A DNA stretch of 64,000 nt from an uncultured Acidobacteriota bacterium (GTDB lineage Bacteria > Acidobacteriota > Vicinamibacteria > Vicinamibacterales > CAVVIG01): the NCBI GenBank assembly GCA_963792785.1, contig CAWBXO010000004.1:770278-834277 (forward strand), read 5' to 3'. Below, piece by piece: positions 7,083 through 61,176 of this stretch (its first letter is position 1; every line of letters starts with the position of its first letter). The notes beneath the pieces are model-generated. The model did no database searches, was not told the origin of the DNA, and worked only from the letters and a program-made list of their open reading frames with translations. The translations under genes and the position numbers were made by a program.

Positions 7083-7229
7083 TAAGGTGCCGGGTGCCGG
7101 GGGCTTGGTGCCTGGAAGGTGCCTGGTGAGGGGGCTCGGTGCGGTCGCCGCACCCGGCACCTGGCCCCTGGCACCTGGAACGTTCCAGGCGCCCGGCACC
7201 AAGCACCGGGAACTGACACGATTCGATCG
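7083..7229. repeat. Dyad-symmetric spacer rich in GGTGCC / GGCACC words between convergent genes
   Basis: GGTGCC occurs four times on the left (7088-7124) and GGCACC three times on the right (7157-7201). There is a central hairpin GGTGCGG-tcg-CCGCACC (7139-7155) and a perfect 16-bp palindrome CCTGGAACGTTCCAGG (7175-7190). No U-tract is present. Confidence 0.6.
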
Positions 7230-8935: not shown

Positions 8936-9565
8936 TTACTTCGAATACAACTCGACGATCAGCTGTTCCTGCACGGGCAGGTTGATCTGCTCGCGCGTGG
9001 GGACCGAGACCACGCGGCCGCTCGTCGCCGAGGCGTCGAACAGCAGCCACTCCGGGATCCCGCGGCCCTTCACTTCCTCCATCGCGTGCTCGATGGTCGG
9101 GTTCGTCCGGCTCCGCTCGAGCACGGTCACGAGGTCGCCCGGGCGCACCGAGTACGACGGGATGTCGACCTTCTTGCCGTTCACGAGGAAGTGCCCGTGG
9201 CGCACGAGCTGCCGCGCCTGCGGGCGCGACGTCGCCAGGCCCAGGCGGTAGACCACGTTGTCCAGGCGGCGTTCGAGCAGCTGCAGCAGCGTCTCGCCCG
9301 TGATCCCGCGCGTGCGCTCCGCCGCTTCGAAGTAGCGCCGGAACTGGTCCTCGAGCACGCCGTAGATGCGCTTCACCTTCTGCTTCTCGCGAAGCTGCAG
9401 CCCGTAGCCCGAGAGCTTCTGGCGGCGCGACTTGCCGTGCTGGCCTGGCGGGAAGTTGCGCTTCTCGATCGCGCACTTCTCCGTGTAGCACCGCTCCCCC
9501 TTCAGGAAGAGCTTCATGGCTTCCCGGCGGCAGAGCCGGCAGACCGGACCGATGTAACGCGCCAT
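8936..9565 (-). CDS. rpsD: 30S ribosomal protein S4
   Basis: [26 protein letters not shown]. The start overlaps the rpsK stop by 1 nt. Confidence 0.97.
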
Positions 9566-14082: not shown

Positions 14083-14114
14083 AGTTCCCCAGCTCCCCAG
14101 CTCCCCAGTTCCTC
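14083..14114. repeat. 4 x 8-nt tandem array in the rpmD-rplO spacer
   Basis: Plus strand reads AGTTCCCC AGCTCCCC AGCTCCCC AGTTCCTC. The sense strand reads GAGGAACT GGGGAGCT GGGGAGCT GGGGAACT and ends 4 nt before the rplO ATG. Confidence 0.9.
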
Positions 14115-14118
14115 AGCG

Positions 14119-17681: not shown

Positions 17682-17936
17682 TTAGACCTCCGCCGCCTGC
17701 CGCACGATGCGCTTGAGTGCCCAGCGCTTGCGGCGGCTCATCGGGCGGGTCTCGACGATCTCGACGATATCGCCCGGCTTCGCCTCGTTGTTCTCGTCGT
17801 GCGCGACGAAGGTGGACGTGCGGCGCTGCGTCTTGCCGTACAGCCCGTCGCGCACCTGCCATTCCACCGCAACCGTGATGCTCTTCTGCATCTTGTTGCT
17901 GACCACGACGCCGGTCTTTTCGGCCTTCTGCGACAT
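17682..17936 (-). CDS. rpsQ: 30S ribosomal protein S17
   Basis: [17 protein letters not shown]. Confidence 0.95.
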
Positions 17937-24927: not shown

Positions 24928-24955
24928 GATCCCTAATCCCTAGTCCCTGATCCCG
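24928..24955. repeat. 4 x 7-nt tandem array in the rpsG-fusA spacer
   Basis: Plus strand reads GATCCCT AATCCCT AGTCCCT GATCCCG. The sense strand reads CGGGATC AGGGACT AGGGATT AGGGATC and ends 4 nt before the fusA GTG. Confidence 0.9.
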
Positions 24956-24957
24956 AG

Positions 24958-25431
24958 TTACCAGCGGTAATGCGCGAACGCCTTGTTCGCTTCGGCCATG
25001 CGGTGCGTGTCTTCGCGCTTCTTCACCGCGCCGCCGCGCAGGTTCGAGGCGTCCATGAACTCGTTGGCGAGCTTCTCTTCCATCGTCTTGCCGTCGCCGC
25101 GCGAGCGCGCGAAGCTCACCAGCCAGCGGATGCTCAGCGAGAGGCGGCGGCTCGGGTTCACCTCGACGGGCACCTGGTAGTTCGACCCGCCGACGCGCCG
25201 CGACTTCACCTCGAGGCTCGGCTTGACGTTGTCGACCGCCTTCTTGAACACCTTGAGCGGGTCGTCGCCGGTCTTGTCCTTGATGATGTCGAAGCTCTTA
25301 TAGAAGATGTGCTCCGCCGTGCTTCGCTTGCCGCCGCGCATGATGGTGCTGATGAACTTGGTGACGAGCGCGCTCTGGTAGAGCGGGTCCGCCGGGGTAA
25401 CGCGCTTCGAAATGACTCGTCTGCGTGGCAT
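24958..25431 (-). CDS. rpsG: 30S ribosomal protein S7
   Basis: [18 protein letters not shown]. Confidence 0.97.
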
Positions 25432-38764: not shown

Positions 38765-38766
38765 CG

Positions 38767-38808
38767 CACCCAGCACCTAGCACCTAGCACCCAGCACCTA
38801 AAGCACCC
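38767..38808. repeat. 5.7 x 7-nt tandem array spanning the CBS stop codon and the CBS-DDAH spacer
   Basis: Plus strand reads CACCCAG CACCTAG CACCTAG CACCCAG CACCTAA ag CACCC. Sense units are (A/G)GGTGCT. The array ends 2 nt before the DDAH ATG. Confidence 0.9.
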
Positions 38809-49423: not shown

Positions 49424-49487
49424 AATTACCCAATTACCCAATTACCCAATTACCCAATCACCAGATCACCCAATCACCACATCACCA
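49424..49487. repeat. 8 x 8-nt tandem array filling the whole P450-cupin spacer
   Basis: Plus strand reads AATTACCC x4, then AATCACCA, GATCACCC, AATCACCA, CATCACCA. The sense strand reads TGGTGATG TGGTGATT GGGTGATC TGGTGATT (GGGTAATT)x4. Confidence 0.92.
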
Positions 49488-49490
49488 CAT

Positions 49491-55932: not shown

Positions 55933-58432
55933 GTGCTCACCCTGAAGTTCGCCCTCAGGAGTTTCGCCCGCACGCCGTTCGTCACCGCCGTGGCCGTGGC
56001 CTCCCTGGCATTCGGGATCGGCGCGAACACGGCAATCTTCACGATCTTCAACCAGCTGCTGCTCCGGCCGATGCCGGTGGACGCCCCGGCCAGCCTCGTG
56101 AACCTGGGAGCCCCCGGACCCAAGCCGGGCTCCACGTCGTGCAACCAGGCGGGCGACTGCGATCAGGTGTTCAGCTACCCGATGTTCCGCGATCTCGAGC
56201 GCGAGCAGTCGGTGTTCACGGCCGTCGCGCTGCACCGCGCCTTCGGCGCGAACTTCGCGATCGACGGCCAGACGATCAACGGCGAGGCGCAGTTCGTCTC
56301 CGGCAGCTACTTCCCGATGCTCGGCCTCCACCCGGCGCTCGGACGGCTCCTCGGGCCTGCCGACGACCGCGCGCCGGGCGAGTCGCCCGTCGCCGTGATC
56401 AGCCACGCCTACTGGCAGACGCACCTCGCCGGCGATCCGGGTGTCGTCGGCCAGGCGCTCACCGTCAACGGCGAGCCGCTGACGATCGTCGGCGTGGCGC
56501 CGGCGGGCTTCGACGGCATGACGCTCGGGTCGCGCCCCTTCGCGTATGTCCCGGTCACGCTGAGCGACACGCTGGACCGCGCGCCGGGCCGGCTCGAGAA
56601 CCGGCGCTCCTACTGGGCCTATCTCTTCGCGCGGCTGAAGCCGGGCACGTCGCTCGAGCAGGCGCGCACGGCGATCAACGTGCCGTACCACGCGATCCTC
56701 GACAACGTCGAGGCCGGCCTCCAGACCGGGATGAGCGATCAGACGATGGAGCGCTTCCGCGCAAAGTCGATCCTCGTCTCGCCCGGTGCGCACGGCCAGA
56801 GCCAGATCAACACGGAGGCCGTCGCGCCGCTCACGCTGCTGCTCGGCGTCGCCGCGTTCGTGCTGCTCATCGCGTGCGCCAACGTGGCCAACCTGCTCCT
56901 CGCCCGCGCGGCCGCCCGGCAAACCGAAATCGCCGTGCGGCTCGCCATCGGCGCGAGCCGCTGGCAGCTCGTGCGGCAGCTCCTGTTCGAATCCTGCCTG
57001 CTGGCCCTGGCCGGCGGCGCCGCGGGCCTCGTGGTGGCGCGCTGGACGCTTCAGGGCATTCGCGCCATTCTCCCCCCCGAAGCCACGAGCACGATCCAGT
57101 TCACCATGGACTGGCGGGTGCTCGTCTTCGCCGCGGTCGTCGCCCTCGGCACGGGACTCCTCTTCGGCCTGTTCCCGGCGTGGCAGGGCACGCGGCCGGA
57201 TCTCATCGCCTCGATCAAGACGCAGGCGGGCCAGTCGTCCGGCGCGCGCGCGGCCGCGCGCTTCCGGTGGTTCCTCGCGACGGCCCAGATCGCGCTGTCG
57301 ATGGCCCTGCTCGTGTCGGCCGGCCTGTTCGTGAAAAGCCTGGTGAACGTGAGCCGCGTGGCGCTGGGCATCTCCACCGAGAACGTCGTGACGTTCGGGG
57401 TCTCGCCCGCGCTGAACGGCTATCCGCCCGAGCGCTCGCGCGCCCTGCTGACCGAATTGGAAGACCGCCTCGCCGGCATGCCCGGCGTCGACGGCGTCAC
57501 GGCCGCGCGCATCCCGGTCCTCGCCGGCAACAGCTGGGGCACCAGCGTGCGGGCGGAGGGCTTCGACGCGGGGCCAGACACCGACACCAGCTCGCGGCGG
57601 AATGAAGTCGGGCCGGGCTACTTCCACGTGATGGAGGTGCCGATCCTGGCCGGGCGCGAGTTCACCGACGCCGACGCCATCGGCGCGCCGAAGGTGGCCG
57701 TCGTCAACCAGGCGTTCGCGAAGAAGTTCGGCCTGGCCGATTCCGATCGGCCGACGCATCGCCCTCGGCCGCGAGGAGGGACAGCCGCTCGACATCGAGA
57801 TCGTCGGGCTCGTGCGCGACGCCAAGTACAACGACGTGAAGGAGGCCGCGCCGCCGCAGGTCTTCCAGCCCGCGCGCCAGGACGAGAGCCTCGGCTCGGC
57901 CTACTACTACATCCGGACAGCGGGCCGCGCCGAAGACTTCCTCGCCACCGTGCCGAAAGTGGTGTCGAGTGTCGACGCCACCCTGCCCGTGGAGGAGCTC
58001 CGGACGCTGCCGGACCAGGTGCGCGACAACATCTTCCTGGACCGGTTCATCACGATCATGTCGTCGGCGTTCGCCGGCCTGGCGACGCTGCTGGCGGCCA
58101 TCGGCCTCTACGGGGTGCTCGCCTACACGGTGGCCCAGCGCACGCGCGAGATCGGCGTCCGGATGGCCCTCGGCGCCGAGCCGTCACGCGTCCGGGCGAT
58201 GGTCCTCCGCCAGGTGGGGATGATGACCGCCGTCGGCGGCGCGGTGGGCCTGGCCGCCGCCATCGGGATCGGGCGGCTGGCGGGGTCCCTCCTCTACGAG
58301 CTCGATGGCTCGGACCCGATCGTCCTCACGTCGGCGGCCGTGGCGCTCGCTCTCGTGGCCCTCGCCGCCGGCTACGTGCCGGCCCTGCGCGCGTCGCGCG
58401 TGGACCCGATGCGCGCGCTCCGTTACGAATAA
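55933..58432 (+). CDS. ADOP-family duplicated orphan permease, copy 3, with an apparent frame break near 57738-57746
   Basis: LKFALRSFARTPFVT...FGIGANTAIFT runs through KKFGLADS in frame 1. IGRRIALGREEGQPLDIEIVGLVRDAKYNDV ... RVDPMRALRYE is in the next frame. Length minus 1 nt is divisible by 3. Confidence 0.85.
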
Positions 58433-58510: not shown

Positions 58511-59077
58511 ATGCACGCACGCGGGTGCGGCGGCCGGCTGGCAGCGAGTGGACTCGCGATGGCCTTCGCCTGCCTCCCCGCTGTGATCTCCGCCGCCGGC
58601 GAGTCCGAACTCGTCAGCCACGACTCGCACATCCGCACCACCGACCGGCAATTGCGCGCGGCGCTCGACGATGGCATCGCTCACTCGGGCACGTTTCAGG
58701 GGCTCGTCACCCACCTCGAAGCGTCCGACGTCGTCGTGTTCGTGGTGTACGACCGCAAGCCGGGGCAGAACCTCGCGTCGAAGATCTCGTTCGTGTCGGC
58801 GGCGGGCGGGCGGCGGTACCTGACGATCGGCCTGATGACGCGGCTGCCGCGGGTGCGGCAGGTGTCGATCCTCGCGCACGAGCTGCAGCACGCCGTGGAG
58901 ATCGCCGACGCGCCGGCGGTGGTGAGTACCGCGTCGATGGCGCGCTACTACGCGGGGCTGAAGTACGCGGGCGTCCTGGACGCCAACGTCGATCACCGCT
59001 TCGAAAGCCGCGCGGCCATCACGGTCGAGGAGACCGTGGCGCGCGAGATGCGGCCGTTCGTGCGCAAGGCCGACTAG
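58511..59077 (+). CDS. Hypothetical exported protein with an HExxH motif (ILAHELQHAVEI)
   Basis: 188-aa ORF with a signal-like N-terminus. It is preceded by an unusually AT-rich 78-nt spacer. Confidence 0.5.
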   Translation: MHARGCGGRLAASGLAMAFACLPAVISAAGESELVSHDSHIRTTDRQLRAALDDGIAHSGTFQGLVTHLEASDVVVFVVYDRKPGQNLASKISFVSAAGGRRYLTIGLMTRLPRVRQVSILAHELQHAVEIADAPAVVSTASMARYYAGLKYAGVLDANVDHRFESRAAITVEETVAREMRPFVRKAD

Positions 59078-59101
59078 CGGCACTCGCCGCGCGCGCCGCC
59101 G

Positions 59102-59884
59102 TCAGTTGAGATCGCGCGACAGGATCAGCTTCAACTGCAGGTTGTCCGACCCGTCGGTCAGCCCGAAGCCGATGCCCGCCTCCCAGTCGAAGAACCCGCC
59201 GGAGCGATCGACCACGCCGAAGATCTGGTGCGACTGCTCGCTCTTCGGCGCGAAGTCGTGCAGCGGCCCGTACTCGGCGTACTCCTCCAGCGCCACGGCC
59301 CATTCCGGCGACGCGTTGTAGGCGACGCGGATCGATGGCGCGAACACCAGGTTCTTCAGGCCGTCGTAGGACGTATCCAGGATCGGATTGACGATCACGT
59401 CCACCGGGTGCAGGTGCCAGCCGAGGATCGGGCGAATCTCCGACGTGATGCGCTTCTCGTCCCAGTGCTTCGAGTTCACGCTGAACTCGAAGTTCACGCC
59501 GTAGACGAACCGGCGGTCGTCGCCGTTCGGCACCGCGAAGAGCGCGCGCAGCTTGAACCCGTCGATCAGGGCGCCCTGGTCCGCGTCGATGCTGTAGAGC
59601 GGCATGTACAGGCCCGCCTCGAACCAGTTCGTGACCCCCAGCGCCCATTCCGGCACGCCGTTCAGCGAGTGGTGCGAGACCACGGCGCCGGGGAATGCCG
59701 GATCCTTGATGCCATCGGGCGTGAAGTTGTTGTGCAGCGTCAGGTTGAACGTCCCGACCGGGGCCAGTCCGCCGTCGTACACCTGGATTTCGTCGCCCTG
59801 CGCGTGCGCGAGCGCCGGGGCGAGCCCGAGCGTCAGGACCACAGCGGCGATGCGTCCACAGAATCGAAGCGTGCGTGTGTGCAT
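59102..59884 (-). CDS. Outer-membrane beta-barrel protein (MetA-pathway/transporter-like)
   Basis: Signal MHTRTLRFCGRIAAVVLTLGLAPALAHAQ. Alternating beta-strand pattern with an aromatic-rich C-terminus. Confidence 0.7.
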   Translation of the reverse strand: MHTRTLRFCGRIAAVVLTLGLAPALAHAQGDEIQVYDGGLAPVGTFNLTLHNNFTPDGIKDPAFPGAVVSHHSLNGVPEWALGVTNWFEAGLYMPLYSIDADQGALIDGFKLRALFAVPNGDDRRFVYGVNFEFSVNSKHWDEKRITSEIRPILGWHLHPVDVIVNPILDTSYDGLKNLVFAPSIRVAYNASPEWAVALEEYAEYGPLHDFAPKSEQSHQIFGVVDRSGGFFDWEAGIGFGLTDGSDNLQLKLILSRDLN

Positions 59885-59915
59885 AGCCGCAAATCCTACC
59901 GCAAACCCGTGACCC

Positions 59916-60013
59916 GACCCACCCGACCCACCCGACCCACCCGACCCACCCGACCTACCCGACCTACCCGACCTACCCGACCTACCCGACCTACCCGCCC
60001 CACCCGCCCTACC
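59916..60013. repeat. 11 x 9-nt tandem array upstream of the outer-membrane protein gene
   Basis: Plus strand reads GACCCACCC x4, GACCTACCC x5, GCCCCACCC, GCCCTACC. The sense strand reads (GGGTAGGTC)5(GGGTGGGTC)4. The last unit overlaps the stop codon of the upstream gene. Confidence 0.95.
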
Positions 60014-60569
60014 GCGGCCACAGCCAGCCAAAGACGCCCGCCGTCAGCAGCCCGTAGAGCAGGCCGTCGATCATCGACTTGAAAGTCGTCGCCCAGCTCT
60101 TGCCGTACCAGATCGACTGCTGCGGCAGCGCAAGCGCGTACGCGATGAAGGCCGTGGTCCCGGCGAAGCGGAACACCTGGAGATAGTCGGTACCGGCGGG
60201 GACGGCCCGGCTGGCGACGTAGGCCGCGAGCACCGACACCACCAGGGAATAGACGAACCACATCACGAGGTTCTTGCCCATCGCCACCGGCCCTGCCGCG
60301 CGGACGGTCATGTAGACGACCGGCCCCTTCGTCATCTTCTCGGCGAATTCTTTCGATCGCATCTGCTCCATCGAGCCGGGCTGCGGCAGCGCGTAGTCGC
60401 CCGGGGGAATCTCGAACGGACGGATCGCGTCCTGCAGCTCGCCTTCGCGGGGCGCGCGGCGCCAGTCGCCCCGATGGAACGGCGTCATCATGTGGATGAG
60501 GGAGCTCGCCACGAAGACGAGCACGGCCGACAGCACGATCGGAATCACGAGCGACGTCAATGCAACCAT
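60009..60569 (-). CDS. Hypothetical integral membrane protein
   Basis: ATG at 60569 after GGAAGGAG. Four hydrophobic helices. Confidence 0.6.
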   Translation of the reverse strand: MVALTSLVIPIVLSAVLVFVASSLIHMMTPFHRGDWRRAPREGELQDAIRPFEIPPGDYALPQPGSMEQMRSKEFAEKMTKGPVVYMTVRAAGPVAMGKNLVMWFVYSLVVSVLAAYVASRAVPAGTDYLQVFRFAGTTAFIAYALALPQQSIWYGKSWATTFKSMIDGLLYGLLTAGVFGWLWPR

Positions 60570-60702
60570 GTTCGTGGCTCCTTCCATCACTGGCGGCGGG
60601 GCCCCACCCCCGCCGCGAACTGACGCCGATGCTCGCCCTCGGATCTCCATGTCCTCGGGCTCGCATGGCCGCAGGCGCAGGCATCTCCTATGGCGACAGA
60701 GC

Positions 60703-61176
60703 CTATCCGCCAGGCCGGCGCTGATTGATCGCGCGCGTCAGCGCGTCCGGCTCGTCCGTGCCGATGCGGAATCGCGATCCGTCCGTCAGCACCAGCTCGA
60801 CGGCCGACAGGCCGTACACGCCGTACATGATGCCGCCGGGAATCACCCGCACGCCCCAACCGTGCCACCAGCGGTTGCGGACGGGCGTGACGCTCACGAC
60901 GTCCGTCAGGGGAATCCGCCGTTTGATCAACCCGATGCCGAGCCGAGCCGACACGTGCGTCGCGTCCACGGTCACGGTCAGAACCGAGAACAGCAGGAGC
61001 GCCGTCACGGCAATCACGAGAATGGCCGTCGGCGCCGCCGAGCCGGCGCCCAGCACGGCAGTGGTGACGCCGAAGATGACCGCGGCAAGGCCCACGTTCA
61101 CCCAGCCGTATTGCGTATGACGGTACGGGGTCATGGCCGACGCGGACGGCAGGTGGTCTTTCCGTGGTTCGACCAT
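60703..61176 (-). CDS. Hypothetical membrane protein
   Basis: 157 aa with two TM helices followed by a small soluble domain. Confidence 0.5.
   Translation of the reverse strand: MVEPRKDHLPSASAMTPYRHTQYGWVNVGLAAVIFGVTTAVLGAGSAAPTAILVIAVTALLLFSVLTVTVDATHVSARLGIGLIKRRIPLTDVVSVTPVRNRWWHGWGVRVIPGGIMYGVYGLSAVELVLTDGSRFRIGTDEPDALTRAINQRRPGG

Follow-up and report, generated by a model that had tools for sequence, protein, structure and literature searches.

The stretch of DNA analysed here (the window) comprises 64,000 nt of contig CAWBXO010000004.1 from an uncultured Vicinamibacterales bacterium of the phylum Acidobacteriota. With a G+C content of 69%, it contains a tandem array of 9-nt units that makes up nearly the entire 127-nt spacer between a gene for a conserved hypothetical membrane protein and a gene for a predicted outer-membrane beta-barrel protein. 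Both genes lie on the minus strand, and the G-rich strand of the array is their sense strand. Read in this direction, the spacer runs TAG GGCGGGTGGGGCG (GGTAGGTCG)x5 (GGTGGGTCG)x4 GGTC ACGGGTTTGCGG TAGGAT TTGCGGCT ATG, with the TAG stop codon of the upstream gene sitting within the first degenerate unit (the last one on the plus strand) and a short non-repeat segment preceding the start codon of the barrel gene (59882-59884). An earlier interpretation of the locus made from the letters alone (the sequence-only reading) had described two sub-blocks of four and five units plus two degenerate units, beginning on the stop codon of the upstream gene, and our repeat analysis agrees with both points; a partial 5-nt unit was missing from its listing. 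The same reading placed the end of the array 32 nt before the barrel ATG. The array does end ahead of this codon, at a distance of 31 nt when counted from the first full unit or 26 nt when counted from the partial unit. The coordinates of all features are collected in Table 1.

The upstream protein has strongly hydrophobic segments and approximately 6000 homologues, almost all of which are exactly 186 amino acids (aa) long. The downstream protein, with more than 6300 homologues, possesses a signal-peptide-like N-terminus with a hydrophobic segment at residues 8-26, and its AlphaFold model, built from 42 homologues, showed an all-beta barrel of about 14 strands with a predicted local distance difference test (pLDDT) score of 85. 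Foldseek matched this model to 4rl8 (a COG4313 channel; E 1.4e-5, template modelling [TM] score 0.58), 5o68, and 2wjq, with FapF and NanC among the names returned, a Foldseek probability of 1.00 for all three structures, and TM scores of 0.55-0.60. The downstream product thus models as an outer-membrane beta-barrel, and with the hydrophobic segments of the upstream product the identities previously given to the two flanking genes are supported. A Pfam scan found no family for either product, and exact-sequence look-ups with three proteins of the window (barrel, membrane, and SDR) returned no match. "Vicinamibacterales bacterium" was among the few source names of the barrel homologues, and the close relatives were mostly Acidobacteriota or Vicinamibacterales metagenome-assembled genomes (MAGs).

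Tandem Repeats Finder, applied to the 64-kb window, ranked the array first among 88 rows (59912-60013, period 9, 11.3 copies, 95% matches, score 155), whereas the best score for any repeat in shuffled sequence was 81. Nine exact GGGTRGGTC units were counted versus 0.75 expected, a number reached in 0 of 100 shuffles, and arrays with a period of 5-12, at least 3.5 copies, and a score of at least 50 occurred four times in the real window and never in 40 dinucleotide-preserving shuffles. The array is real and lies far beyond chance. Within the window, GGGTRGGTC is confined to this array, and among 166 related loci (1.7 Mb) a dimer of the unit was present only in the orthologous array of one relative, L001. 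A dispersed repeat family was considered and rejected, because the 9-mer is absent elsewhere in the window and absent from the 1.7 Mb of related loci outside the orthologous array. An Rfam scan of the whole window gave no match.

On its sense strand the array carries four non-overlapping canonical G-quadruplex motifs, and the spacer holds 18 G3 tracts. In three of these motifs every loop measures 1-2 nt, which holds for no other motif of the window, in line with the strong motif of eight G3 tracts that the earlier reading had recognized in (GGGTGGGTC)x4. G4Hunter gave a mean of 1.47 over the spacer, with a maximum of 2.12 over 25 nt, and folding of the spacer in ViennaRNA yielded -98.6 kcal/mol with G-quadruplex energies versus -34.0 kcal/mol without them. 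Quadruplex formation by the array is, on these two programs, a prediction. The window as a whole contains 13 canonical motifs versus 4.3 in shuffles (maximum 9), and 12 of the 13 lie on the minus strand, which bears most of the genes.

Table 1. Positions of the array, its parts, the adjoining genes, and further tandem arrays (window coordinates unless a locus is named; G4, G-quadruplex).
Feature	Positions	Strand	Description
Whole 9-nt array	59911-60013	minus	Sense, from the stop: two degenerate units, (GGGTAGGTC)x5, (GGGTGGGTC)x4, partial GGGTC
Two degenerate units	59997-60013	minus	Hold the upstream gene's TAG stop (60009-60011); tight-loop G4 motif 59994-60009; plus-strand units GCCCCACCC (59997-60005) and GCCCTACC (60006-60013)
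Sub-block (GGGTAGGTC)x5	59952-59996	minus	One G3 tract per unit, 6-nt loops; G4 motif 59958-59987; plus-strand units GACCTACCC x5
Sub-block (GGGTGGGTC)x4	59916-59951	minus	Eight G3 tracts, loops 1-2 nt; strongest G4 motif of the window; tight-loop G4 motifs 59918-59933 and 59936-59951; plus-strand units GACCCACCC x4
Partial 5-nt unit	59911-59915	plus	GACCC
Conserved non-repeat segment	59885-59910	minus	ACGGGTTTGCGG-TAGGAT-TTGCGGCT; -10-like TAGGAT at 59893-59898, 8 nt before ATG
Downstream gene	59102-59884	minus	260-aa secreted beta-barrel protein, predicted outer-membrane channel fold
Upstream gene	60009-60569	minus	186-aa conserved hypothetical membrane protein; Shine-Dalgarno-like GGAAGGAG ahead of ATG at 60569
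8-nt array	49424-49490	minus	GGGTAATT / GGGTGATY, ~8 units; P450 stop to cupin start: TGA, eight units, TGCC ATG
7-nt array	38766-38800	minus	TAGGTGC / TGGGTGC, x5; PALP/CBS gene TAG stop (inside first unit) to 1 nt before amidinotransferase ATG
7-nt array	24929-24958	minus	GGGATCA x4, exactly four G3 tracts; ribosomal protein S7 to EF-G spacer: TAA CTC (array) GTC GTG
8-nt array	14086-14117	minus	TGGGGAGC x4, Shine-Dalgarno-like; ribosomal proteins L30 to L15 spacer: TGA CGC (array) TCACG ATG
Two inverted heptamer arrays	7086-7112 and 7150-7178		GGTGCCG... and ...GCACCTG; between convergent EF-G-like and L17 genes
Heptamer arrays beside barrel-family genes	L008 94-124; L020 128-160; L089 7205-7237; L098 10717-10824; L013 934-975		Unrelated contigs

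Orthologous loci were drawn from independent assemblies (ENA, JGI, and Logan), and all comparisons are between species, with flanks 77-89% identical to the window at the nucleotide level and the closest, L001, at 85-89%. The membrane-protein gene is directly followed by the barrel gene in four other assemblies, and in all four a related array begins on the TAG stop codon, which in L001, L003, and L004, too, forms part of the first unit. The arrays themselves differ considerably. Compared with 11 units in the 127-nt spacer of the window, L001 (barrel 97% identical at the protein level) has a 127-nt spacer with approximately 9-10 units, in which A- and G-type units are mixed in the order A G A A G A A; L003 (barrel 89%) has a 122-nt spacer with about nine units arranged in an 18-nt higher-order period, GGGTTGGTCAGGTGGGTC x3; L004 (barrel 88%) has an 86-nt spacer with some 4-5 degenerate units; and L167 (membrane protein 84%) has a 100-nt spacer with a GC-rich hairpin after the stop codon plus about three units. 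Since the other three spacers measure 122, 86, and 100 nt, the equal length in the window and L001 was treated as a coincidence. Where the barrel gene has a different upstream neighbor, as in L002/L084 and L164, and in L085 and L165, in which a carbonic anhydrase gene is inserted, no array is found. Turnover of the array that far outpaces that of its flanks, together with block-by-block homogenization, points to slippage or unequal exchange, and slippage-type turnover between species is supported by this sequence comparison. The stepwise slippage expansion proposed in the sequence-only reading fits the related 9-nt units, which occur in numbers from about 3 to 11 and in differing orders at the same spacer in the four related genomes. 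Judging from this distribution, the array is old enough to be common to several species. As the comparison between species shows, it expands, contracts, and becomes homogenized by replication slippage or unequal exchange.

Two side observations concern arrays near these genes. L001 has a second 9-nt array (9224-9294; GGCGGGTGG / GCAGGTGGG, approximately seven units), which begins at the TAG stop codon of the gene preceding the membrane-protein gene and is built of units similar to those studied here; the corresponding spacer of the window has a different sequence and no array. Heptamer arrays whose sequences are unrelated (AATCTGC, TCGCGAT, TCGCGGT, GATTGGC, CCGGGAT) also immediately adjoin barrel-family genes of unrelated contigs, on the upstream or the downstream side, which may be a sampling effect of choosing loci centered on the barrel gene.

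The possibility that the array is coding or an artefact, that is, an N-terminal extension of the barrel protein (open reading frame [ORF] 59102-60031, with a TTG start and the sequence GRSGRSGRS...), a small ORF of the spacer, or an assembly error, deserves very little credence. An open frame does run through the array, since a 9-nt unit keeps frames open, and the assembly has at least one frameshifted gene, so sequence errors exist. However, the homologues are about 260 aa long and start at the ATG before the signal peptide, the first methionine hardly varies across 42 sequences, the upstream frame differs in register and is not preserved in L001, L003, and L004, and arrays are found at the same spacer in five independent assemblies. 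The extended ORF was discarded as a gene model on these grounds, the extension being unconserved and the homologues beginning at the signal-peptide ATG. A role of the units as back-up stop codons was likewise discarded: in-frame TAG copies recur in the window array but are not repeated in L001 and L003.

The 26 nt between the array and the barrel ATG are retained both in relatives with an array (L001, L003, L004, and L167) and in relatives without one (L002/L084, L164, and L085). Irrespective of the array, TTTGCGGTAG[GC]AT or TTTTCCGCTACCAT is followed by 8 nt and the ATG, the segment reading TTTGCGGTAGGAT-TTGCGGCT-ATG in the window and L001, TTTGCGGTAGCAT-GTGCCGCC-ATG in L002, TTTGCGATAGCAT-GTGCCGCC-ATG in L164, TTTGCGGTAGCAT-CTTCACCC-ATG in L085, and TTTTCCGCTACCAT-CTGCGGCC-ATG in L004 and L167, with CTGCGCTC in L003. 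The hexamer thus varies among TAGGAT, TAGCAT, and TACCAT, and it behaves like a -10 box because these variants keep TAnnAT yet destroy a Shine-Dalgarno reading. Across the barrel family, TAnnnT was found 4-15 nt (mostly 7-10 nt) before the start codon in 45 of 139 distinct upstream regions versus 8 of 139 for a control interval placed further upstream, an enrichment that suggests leaderless or near-leaderless transcripts in this family across the Acidobacteriota; the 139 regions showed no -35 consensus. A distance of 12 nt separates TAGGAT from the end of the array, which runs from there in the upstream direction; the last unit of the window (TGGGTC) lies 17 nt upstream of the -10-like box, at a position where relatives have TGGTAC or TAGTAC. 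The array would accordingly cover about -25 to -125 of the barrel promoter and form the 3' flank of the upstream gene. The barrel gene's own transcript probably lacks the array, whose only transcription would then be as 3'-flanking sequence of the upstream gene. A terminator scan of 58900-60900 found no relevant terminator, and the spacer has no hairpin terminator.

This arrangement bears on the proposal of the sequence-only reading that a tandem repeat ahead of a surface-protein gene is the layout of a phase-variable contingency locus, in which frequent slippage within the population would switch or tune expression of the barrel protein. The downstream gene does encode a predicted outer-membrane barrel, the array abuts the putative core promoter with its last unit at the -35 position, the unit number differs between related genomes, and the long perfect blocks of four and five units suggest recent expansion. 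Nevertheless, we consider the proposal improbable. Contingency repeats may act from within a reading frame, with a unit length that is not a multiple of three; here the unit is 9 bp and non-coding, placed between the stop codon and the ATG at 59884 where the homologues start, so a frameshift switch is excluded. They may also lie between the -35 and -10 elements or over a regulator site. The studied array is upstream of the putative -10 box and outside the -35/-10 interval, so that unit number cannot alter the spacing, and the end of the coding region directly upstream leaves no room for a distal activator site to be tuned. A genome that uses such repeats for contingency would be expected to favor surface or host-interaction genes, whereas similar arrays in the window adjoin S7/EF-G, L30/L15, L17, P450/cupin, and a PALP-CBS enzyme, which are ribosomal, housekeeping, or metabolic neighbors. 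Moreover, the barrel orthologues of L002, L164, and L085 keep the promoter-like motif without any array, and the differences in unit number were seen between species only. The sequence-only reading had itself named a promoter downstream of the array as one half of what would speak against a phase-variable locus, and the conserved -10-like box would place the promoter there.

Promoter-associated phase-variable repeats of Neisseria, Haemophilus, and Moraxella lie between the -35 and -10 elements or upstream of the promoter, and the known phase switches have units of 1-7 nt, occur in small host-adapted genomes, and act through promoter spacing, reading frame, or regulator binding. The studied array resembles them as a tandem repeat directly upstream of an outer-membrane protein gene with a unit number changed by slippage, but none of their switch mechanisms applies to it. 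A G-quadruplex associated with pilE of Neisseria gonorrhoeae, the subject of work by Cahoon and Seifert in 2009, reportedly starts recombination with silent pilS copies, and its motif, reported as G3TG3TTG3TG3, is almost equal to GGGTGGGTCGGGTGGG of the studied array. Both are tight-loop G3 motifs upstream of a surface-protein gene; the pilE element differs in being a single motif rather than an array and in having silent donor cassettes. Rehm et al. (PMC4692102) cite work on this element as their references 82-84. Searches of the window with the barrel gene (tblastn and blastn) recovered only the gene itself and no partial or silent copy, and the idea of pilS-like silent cassettes in the window was dropped.

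The array is the largest among several short arrays in the window that are anchored at stop codons, G-rich on the sense strand, and fill their spacers, some of them in ribosomal-protein operons. At least six other G-rich arrays of the window occupy spacers beside housekeeping genes. Eight arrays with a period of 5-12 and a score of at least 40 were counted in the 64 kb, compared with 0.28 in shuffles, and they share a common anatomy on the sense strand, from stop codon through array to start codon (Table 1; neighbor genes identified with Pfam). Such arrays occupy about one-tenth of the spacers in the window, including those of the str, S10, and spc ribosomal operons. The array between the P450 and cupin genes has an orthologue in L001 (20498-20653) with 19.6 copies and a score of 291, versus about eight copies in the window, and several of its units (GGGTGATC, TGGTGATT) are presumably complementary to the conserved 3' end of 16S rRNA (GAUCACC). 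Shine-Dalgarno mimicry was considered as well, with GGAG- or GGTGA-like cores present in several other arrays; by inspection, the GGTGG and GGTAGG of the studied 9-mer pair poorly. For the two inverted arrays at 7086-7178, the G-rich strand is in each case the sense strand of the array's own gene, and the pair could form a long hairpin, in the manner of the inverted GGGAATC pairs reported for Xanthomonas. Separately, a more distant Acidobacteriota MAG (L098) has an inverted array pair at 17703-17740 (GAATCGGG) and 17763-17805 (GATTTCCC, which is GGGAAATC on the other strand), essentially identical to the Xanthomonas GGGAATC motif.

Two further Vicinamibacterales ribosomal-protein regions, L169 and L170, were compared with the window. 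L169 has arrays in the S12/S7 and S7/EF-G spacers, the latter a heptamer array with four G3 tracts, and L170 has arrays in the L5/S14 and S17/L14 spacers and none between S7 and EF-G, so the spacers used differ in part from those of the window. Fixed array positions in ribosomal operons were therefore rejected, the S7/EF-G array being present in the window and L169 and not in L170, and the L30/L15 array in the window only; at the sequence level, this pattern shows that the tendency to have arrays recurs and that their sites are not conserved. Taken over the loci, the array type appears to be general in the genome and not specific to surface genes. Among 21 arrays between aligned genes (all loci collected), 17 had more G than C on the sense strand, as did three more window arrays, against a baseline in which the first 40 nt after stop codons are unskewed (45% positive); gene calls for this strand count were crude. 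The sense-strand G bias of the arrays is significant.

This bias raises the possibility of selection acting on the array as a G-quadruplex or G-rich element at a gene boundary, which might stop or pause transcription running out of the membrane-protein gene as an insulator or substitute for a terminator, protect the 3' end of the mRNA of that gene, or form a Rho-refractory, G-rich and C-poor spacer, with slippage tolerated as long as enough G-tracts remain. The excess of quadruplex motifs on the gene-rich strand, the exact start of the arrays at stop codons, the large energy difference on folding, the spacer without a hairpin terminator, for which L167 with its approximately three units has the GC-rich hairpin instead, and the exactly four G3 tracts in the S7/EF-G arrays of both the window and L169 all speak for such selection. 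Yet quadruplex potential is not kept at the orthologous spacers, where a single canonical motif is found in L004 and none in L003, the ribosomal-operon arrays sit at differing spacers per genome, several arrays of relatives are not G3-rich, and Rehm et al. (PMC4692102) could assign no regulatory function to analogous repeats. We regard a selected element as possible but rather unlikely.

The reading that we favor, with modest confidence, is that the array is a slippage-generated, locus-specific spacer repeat of a known class of long-unit, G-rich intergenic repeats found in Xanthomonas, Nostoc, and other free-living bacteria with large genomes. Rehm et al. (PLoS One 2015; PMC4692102) described the heptamers GGGAATC of Xanthomonas and GGGGA(C/T)T of Nostoc, which are intergenic, preferentially between aligned ORFs, and occur on the coding strand, where they overlap the stop codon or are no more than 50 bp away from it, often in inverted pairs. 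Their length varies strongly between Xcc and Xac at the same spacer, they are mostly transcribed, they form quadruplexes in vitro, and they neighbor genes of all classes; the authors assigned no function and judged phase variation unlikely (PMC4692102), a verdict on analogous repeats that also speaks against a contingency locus here. The studied array shares most of these properties: at least four G3 tracts (18 here, with four non-overlapping canonical motifs), an intergenic position between aligned genes on the minus strand, a G-rich coding strand with the stop codon inside the first unit, and variation in length and sequence at the same spacer between species (about 3-11 units over five orthologous spacers). 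Inverted pairs between convergent genes and neighbors of all functional classes are further likenesses. It departs from the class in that one heptamer recurs there at approximately 190 sites per genome, whereas in the 64 kb of the source genome examined here each spacer has its own 7-, 8-, or 9-nt unit. It also belongs to another phylum, the Acidobacteriota, and is known from sequence alone, in contrast to the in vitro and transcript data available for the Rehm repeats. Any effect of the array on expression would be graded rather than on/off, for instance by way of quadruplex- or R-loop-prone DNA beside the promoter or because the upstream transcript carries a G-rich tail.

Several observations pull against this reading. 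The persistence of an array at the same spacer in five lineages, together with the significant sense-strand G bias, hints at some selection beyond purely neutral slippage. The 9-nt unit, over the window and the 1.7 Mb of related loci, is locus-specific, unlike the Xanthomonas and Nostoc repeats. Segment 59885-59910 is regarded as a leaderless-type core promoter, its position being deduced from conservation only, and a scan of 58900-60900 with a strict sigma-70 consensus found no promoter; the last unit of the array, at the -35 position, could supply or disturb a -35 element.

Other intergenic repeats provide further points of comparison. Mycobacterial interspersed repetitive unit-variable-number tandem repeats (MIRU-VNTRs), as reportedly described by Supply et al. 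in 1997, are a dispersed family with units of 40-100 bp that carry small ORFs. Like the window arrays, they are variable-number repeats in intercistronic operon spacers touching the flanking stop and start codons, but the window arrays have units of 7-9 nt, each specific to its locus. Long simple-sequence repeats with 5-11 bp units are said to occur in the large genomes of free-living bacteria, according to a 2007 PNAS survey by Mrazek, Guo, and Shah. The likeness to such surveys is that longer-unit tandem repeats are unsuppressed, sometimes over-represented, and intergenic. In a follow-up, Huang and Mrazek (2014; PMC4060949) found no suppression of 4-11 nt tandem repeats in prokaryotes and considered their roles to be distinct from those of the 1-4 nt repeats of host-adapted pathogens; that work differs from ours in being a statistical survey in which Acidobacteria appear as a phylum column only and in which no stop-codon-anchored arrays are described. 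MacGregor (2015; PMC4679880) reported TAACTGA direct repeats in Beggiatoaceae, cyanobacteria, and Bacteroidetes, situated just before start codons and also in ribosomal operons. These are similarly short intergenic direct-repeat sets a few nucleotides before start codons, present in ribosomal-protein operons and without a functional pattern among the downstream genes; they differ as a single conserved heptamer that is not G-rich and for which a post-transcriptional regulator site was proposed (PMC4679880), whereas the studied array ends before a promoter-like box. The literature searched contained no description of long-unit, G-rich intergenic repeats in Acidobacteriota or Vicinamibacterales.

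Beyond the array, three features of the surroundings were recorded. An intergenic element of approximately 85 nt with a GC-rich hairpin (window 60571-60656, minus strand) precedes the membrane-protein gene and reaches as far as the Shine-Dalgarno sequence and ATG of that gene. It aligns at about 78% with L169 15784-15868, the L30/L15 spacer of a different Vicinamibacterales MAG, with a core, GCGTCAGTTCGCGGCGGG, matching at 18 of 18 positions; that site is not orthologous and likewise ends just ahead of a start codon, and the element may, from this alignment, be a small dispersed intergenic element. A MacB/FtsX-type permease gene of the window (55933-58432, plus strand), whose product has two FtsX domains and is about 808 aa long in relatives, is split between frames 1 and 2 near 57729-57743, which could reflect a pseudogene or an indel error of assembly. 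The EF-G gene calls of L169 (contig_39443, ENA sample ERZ25039533, the sample that also yielded L001) are fragmented, which suggests that such assemblies carry indel errors, a point that bears on exact unit counts.

A broader view, which we offer as speculative and doubtful, is that stop-anchored, sense-G-rich arrays are a systematic building block of spacers in this Vicinamibacterales lineage. They would act as RNA or DNA G-quadruplexes or as Rho-refractory tracts on read-through, mRNA 3'-end stability, and downstream translation, and slippage would make them genome-wide, evolvable rheostats of expression, of which the 11-unit array at the barrel gene would be the most expanded. If the ordinary reading of a slippage-generated spacer repeat is right, the locus would be a useful variable-number marker for soil Vicinamibacterales, and the Acidobacteriota would also possess the puzzling long-unit, G-rich intergenic repeats of Xanthomonas and cyanobacteria. 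The case also advises caution, as a repeat before a surface-protein gene is not automatically a contingency locus. The arrays of the window make up a small collection of test cases for asking why coding-strand arrays stand right after stop codons, even in ribosomal-protein operons, and raise the question of how strong RNA and DNA quadruplex motifs are tolerated in bacterial transcripts.

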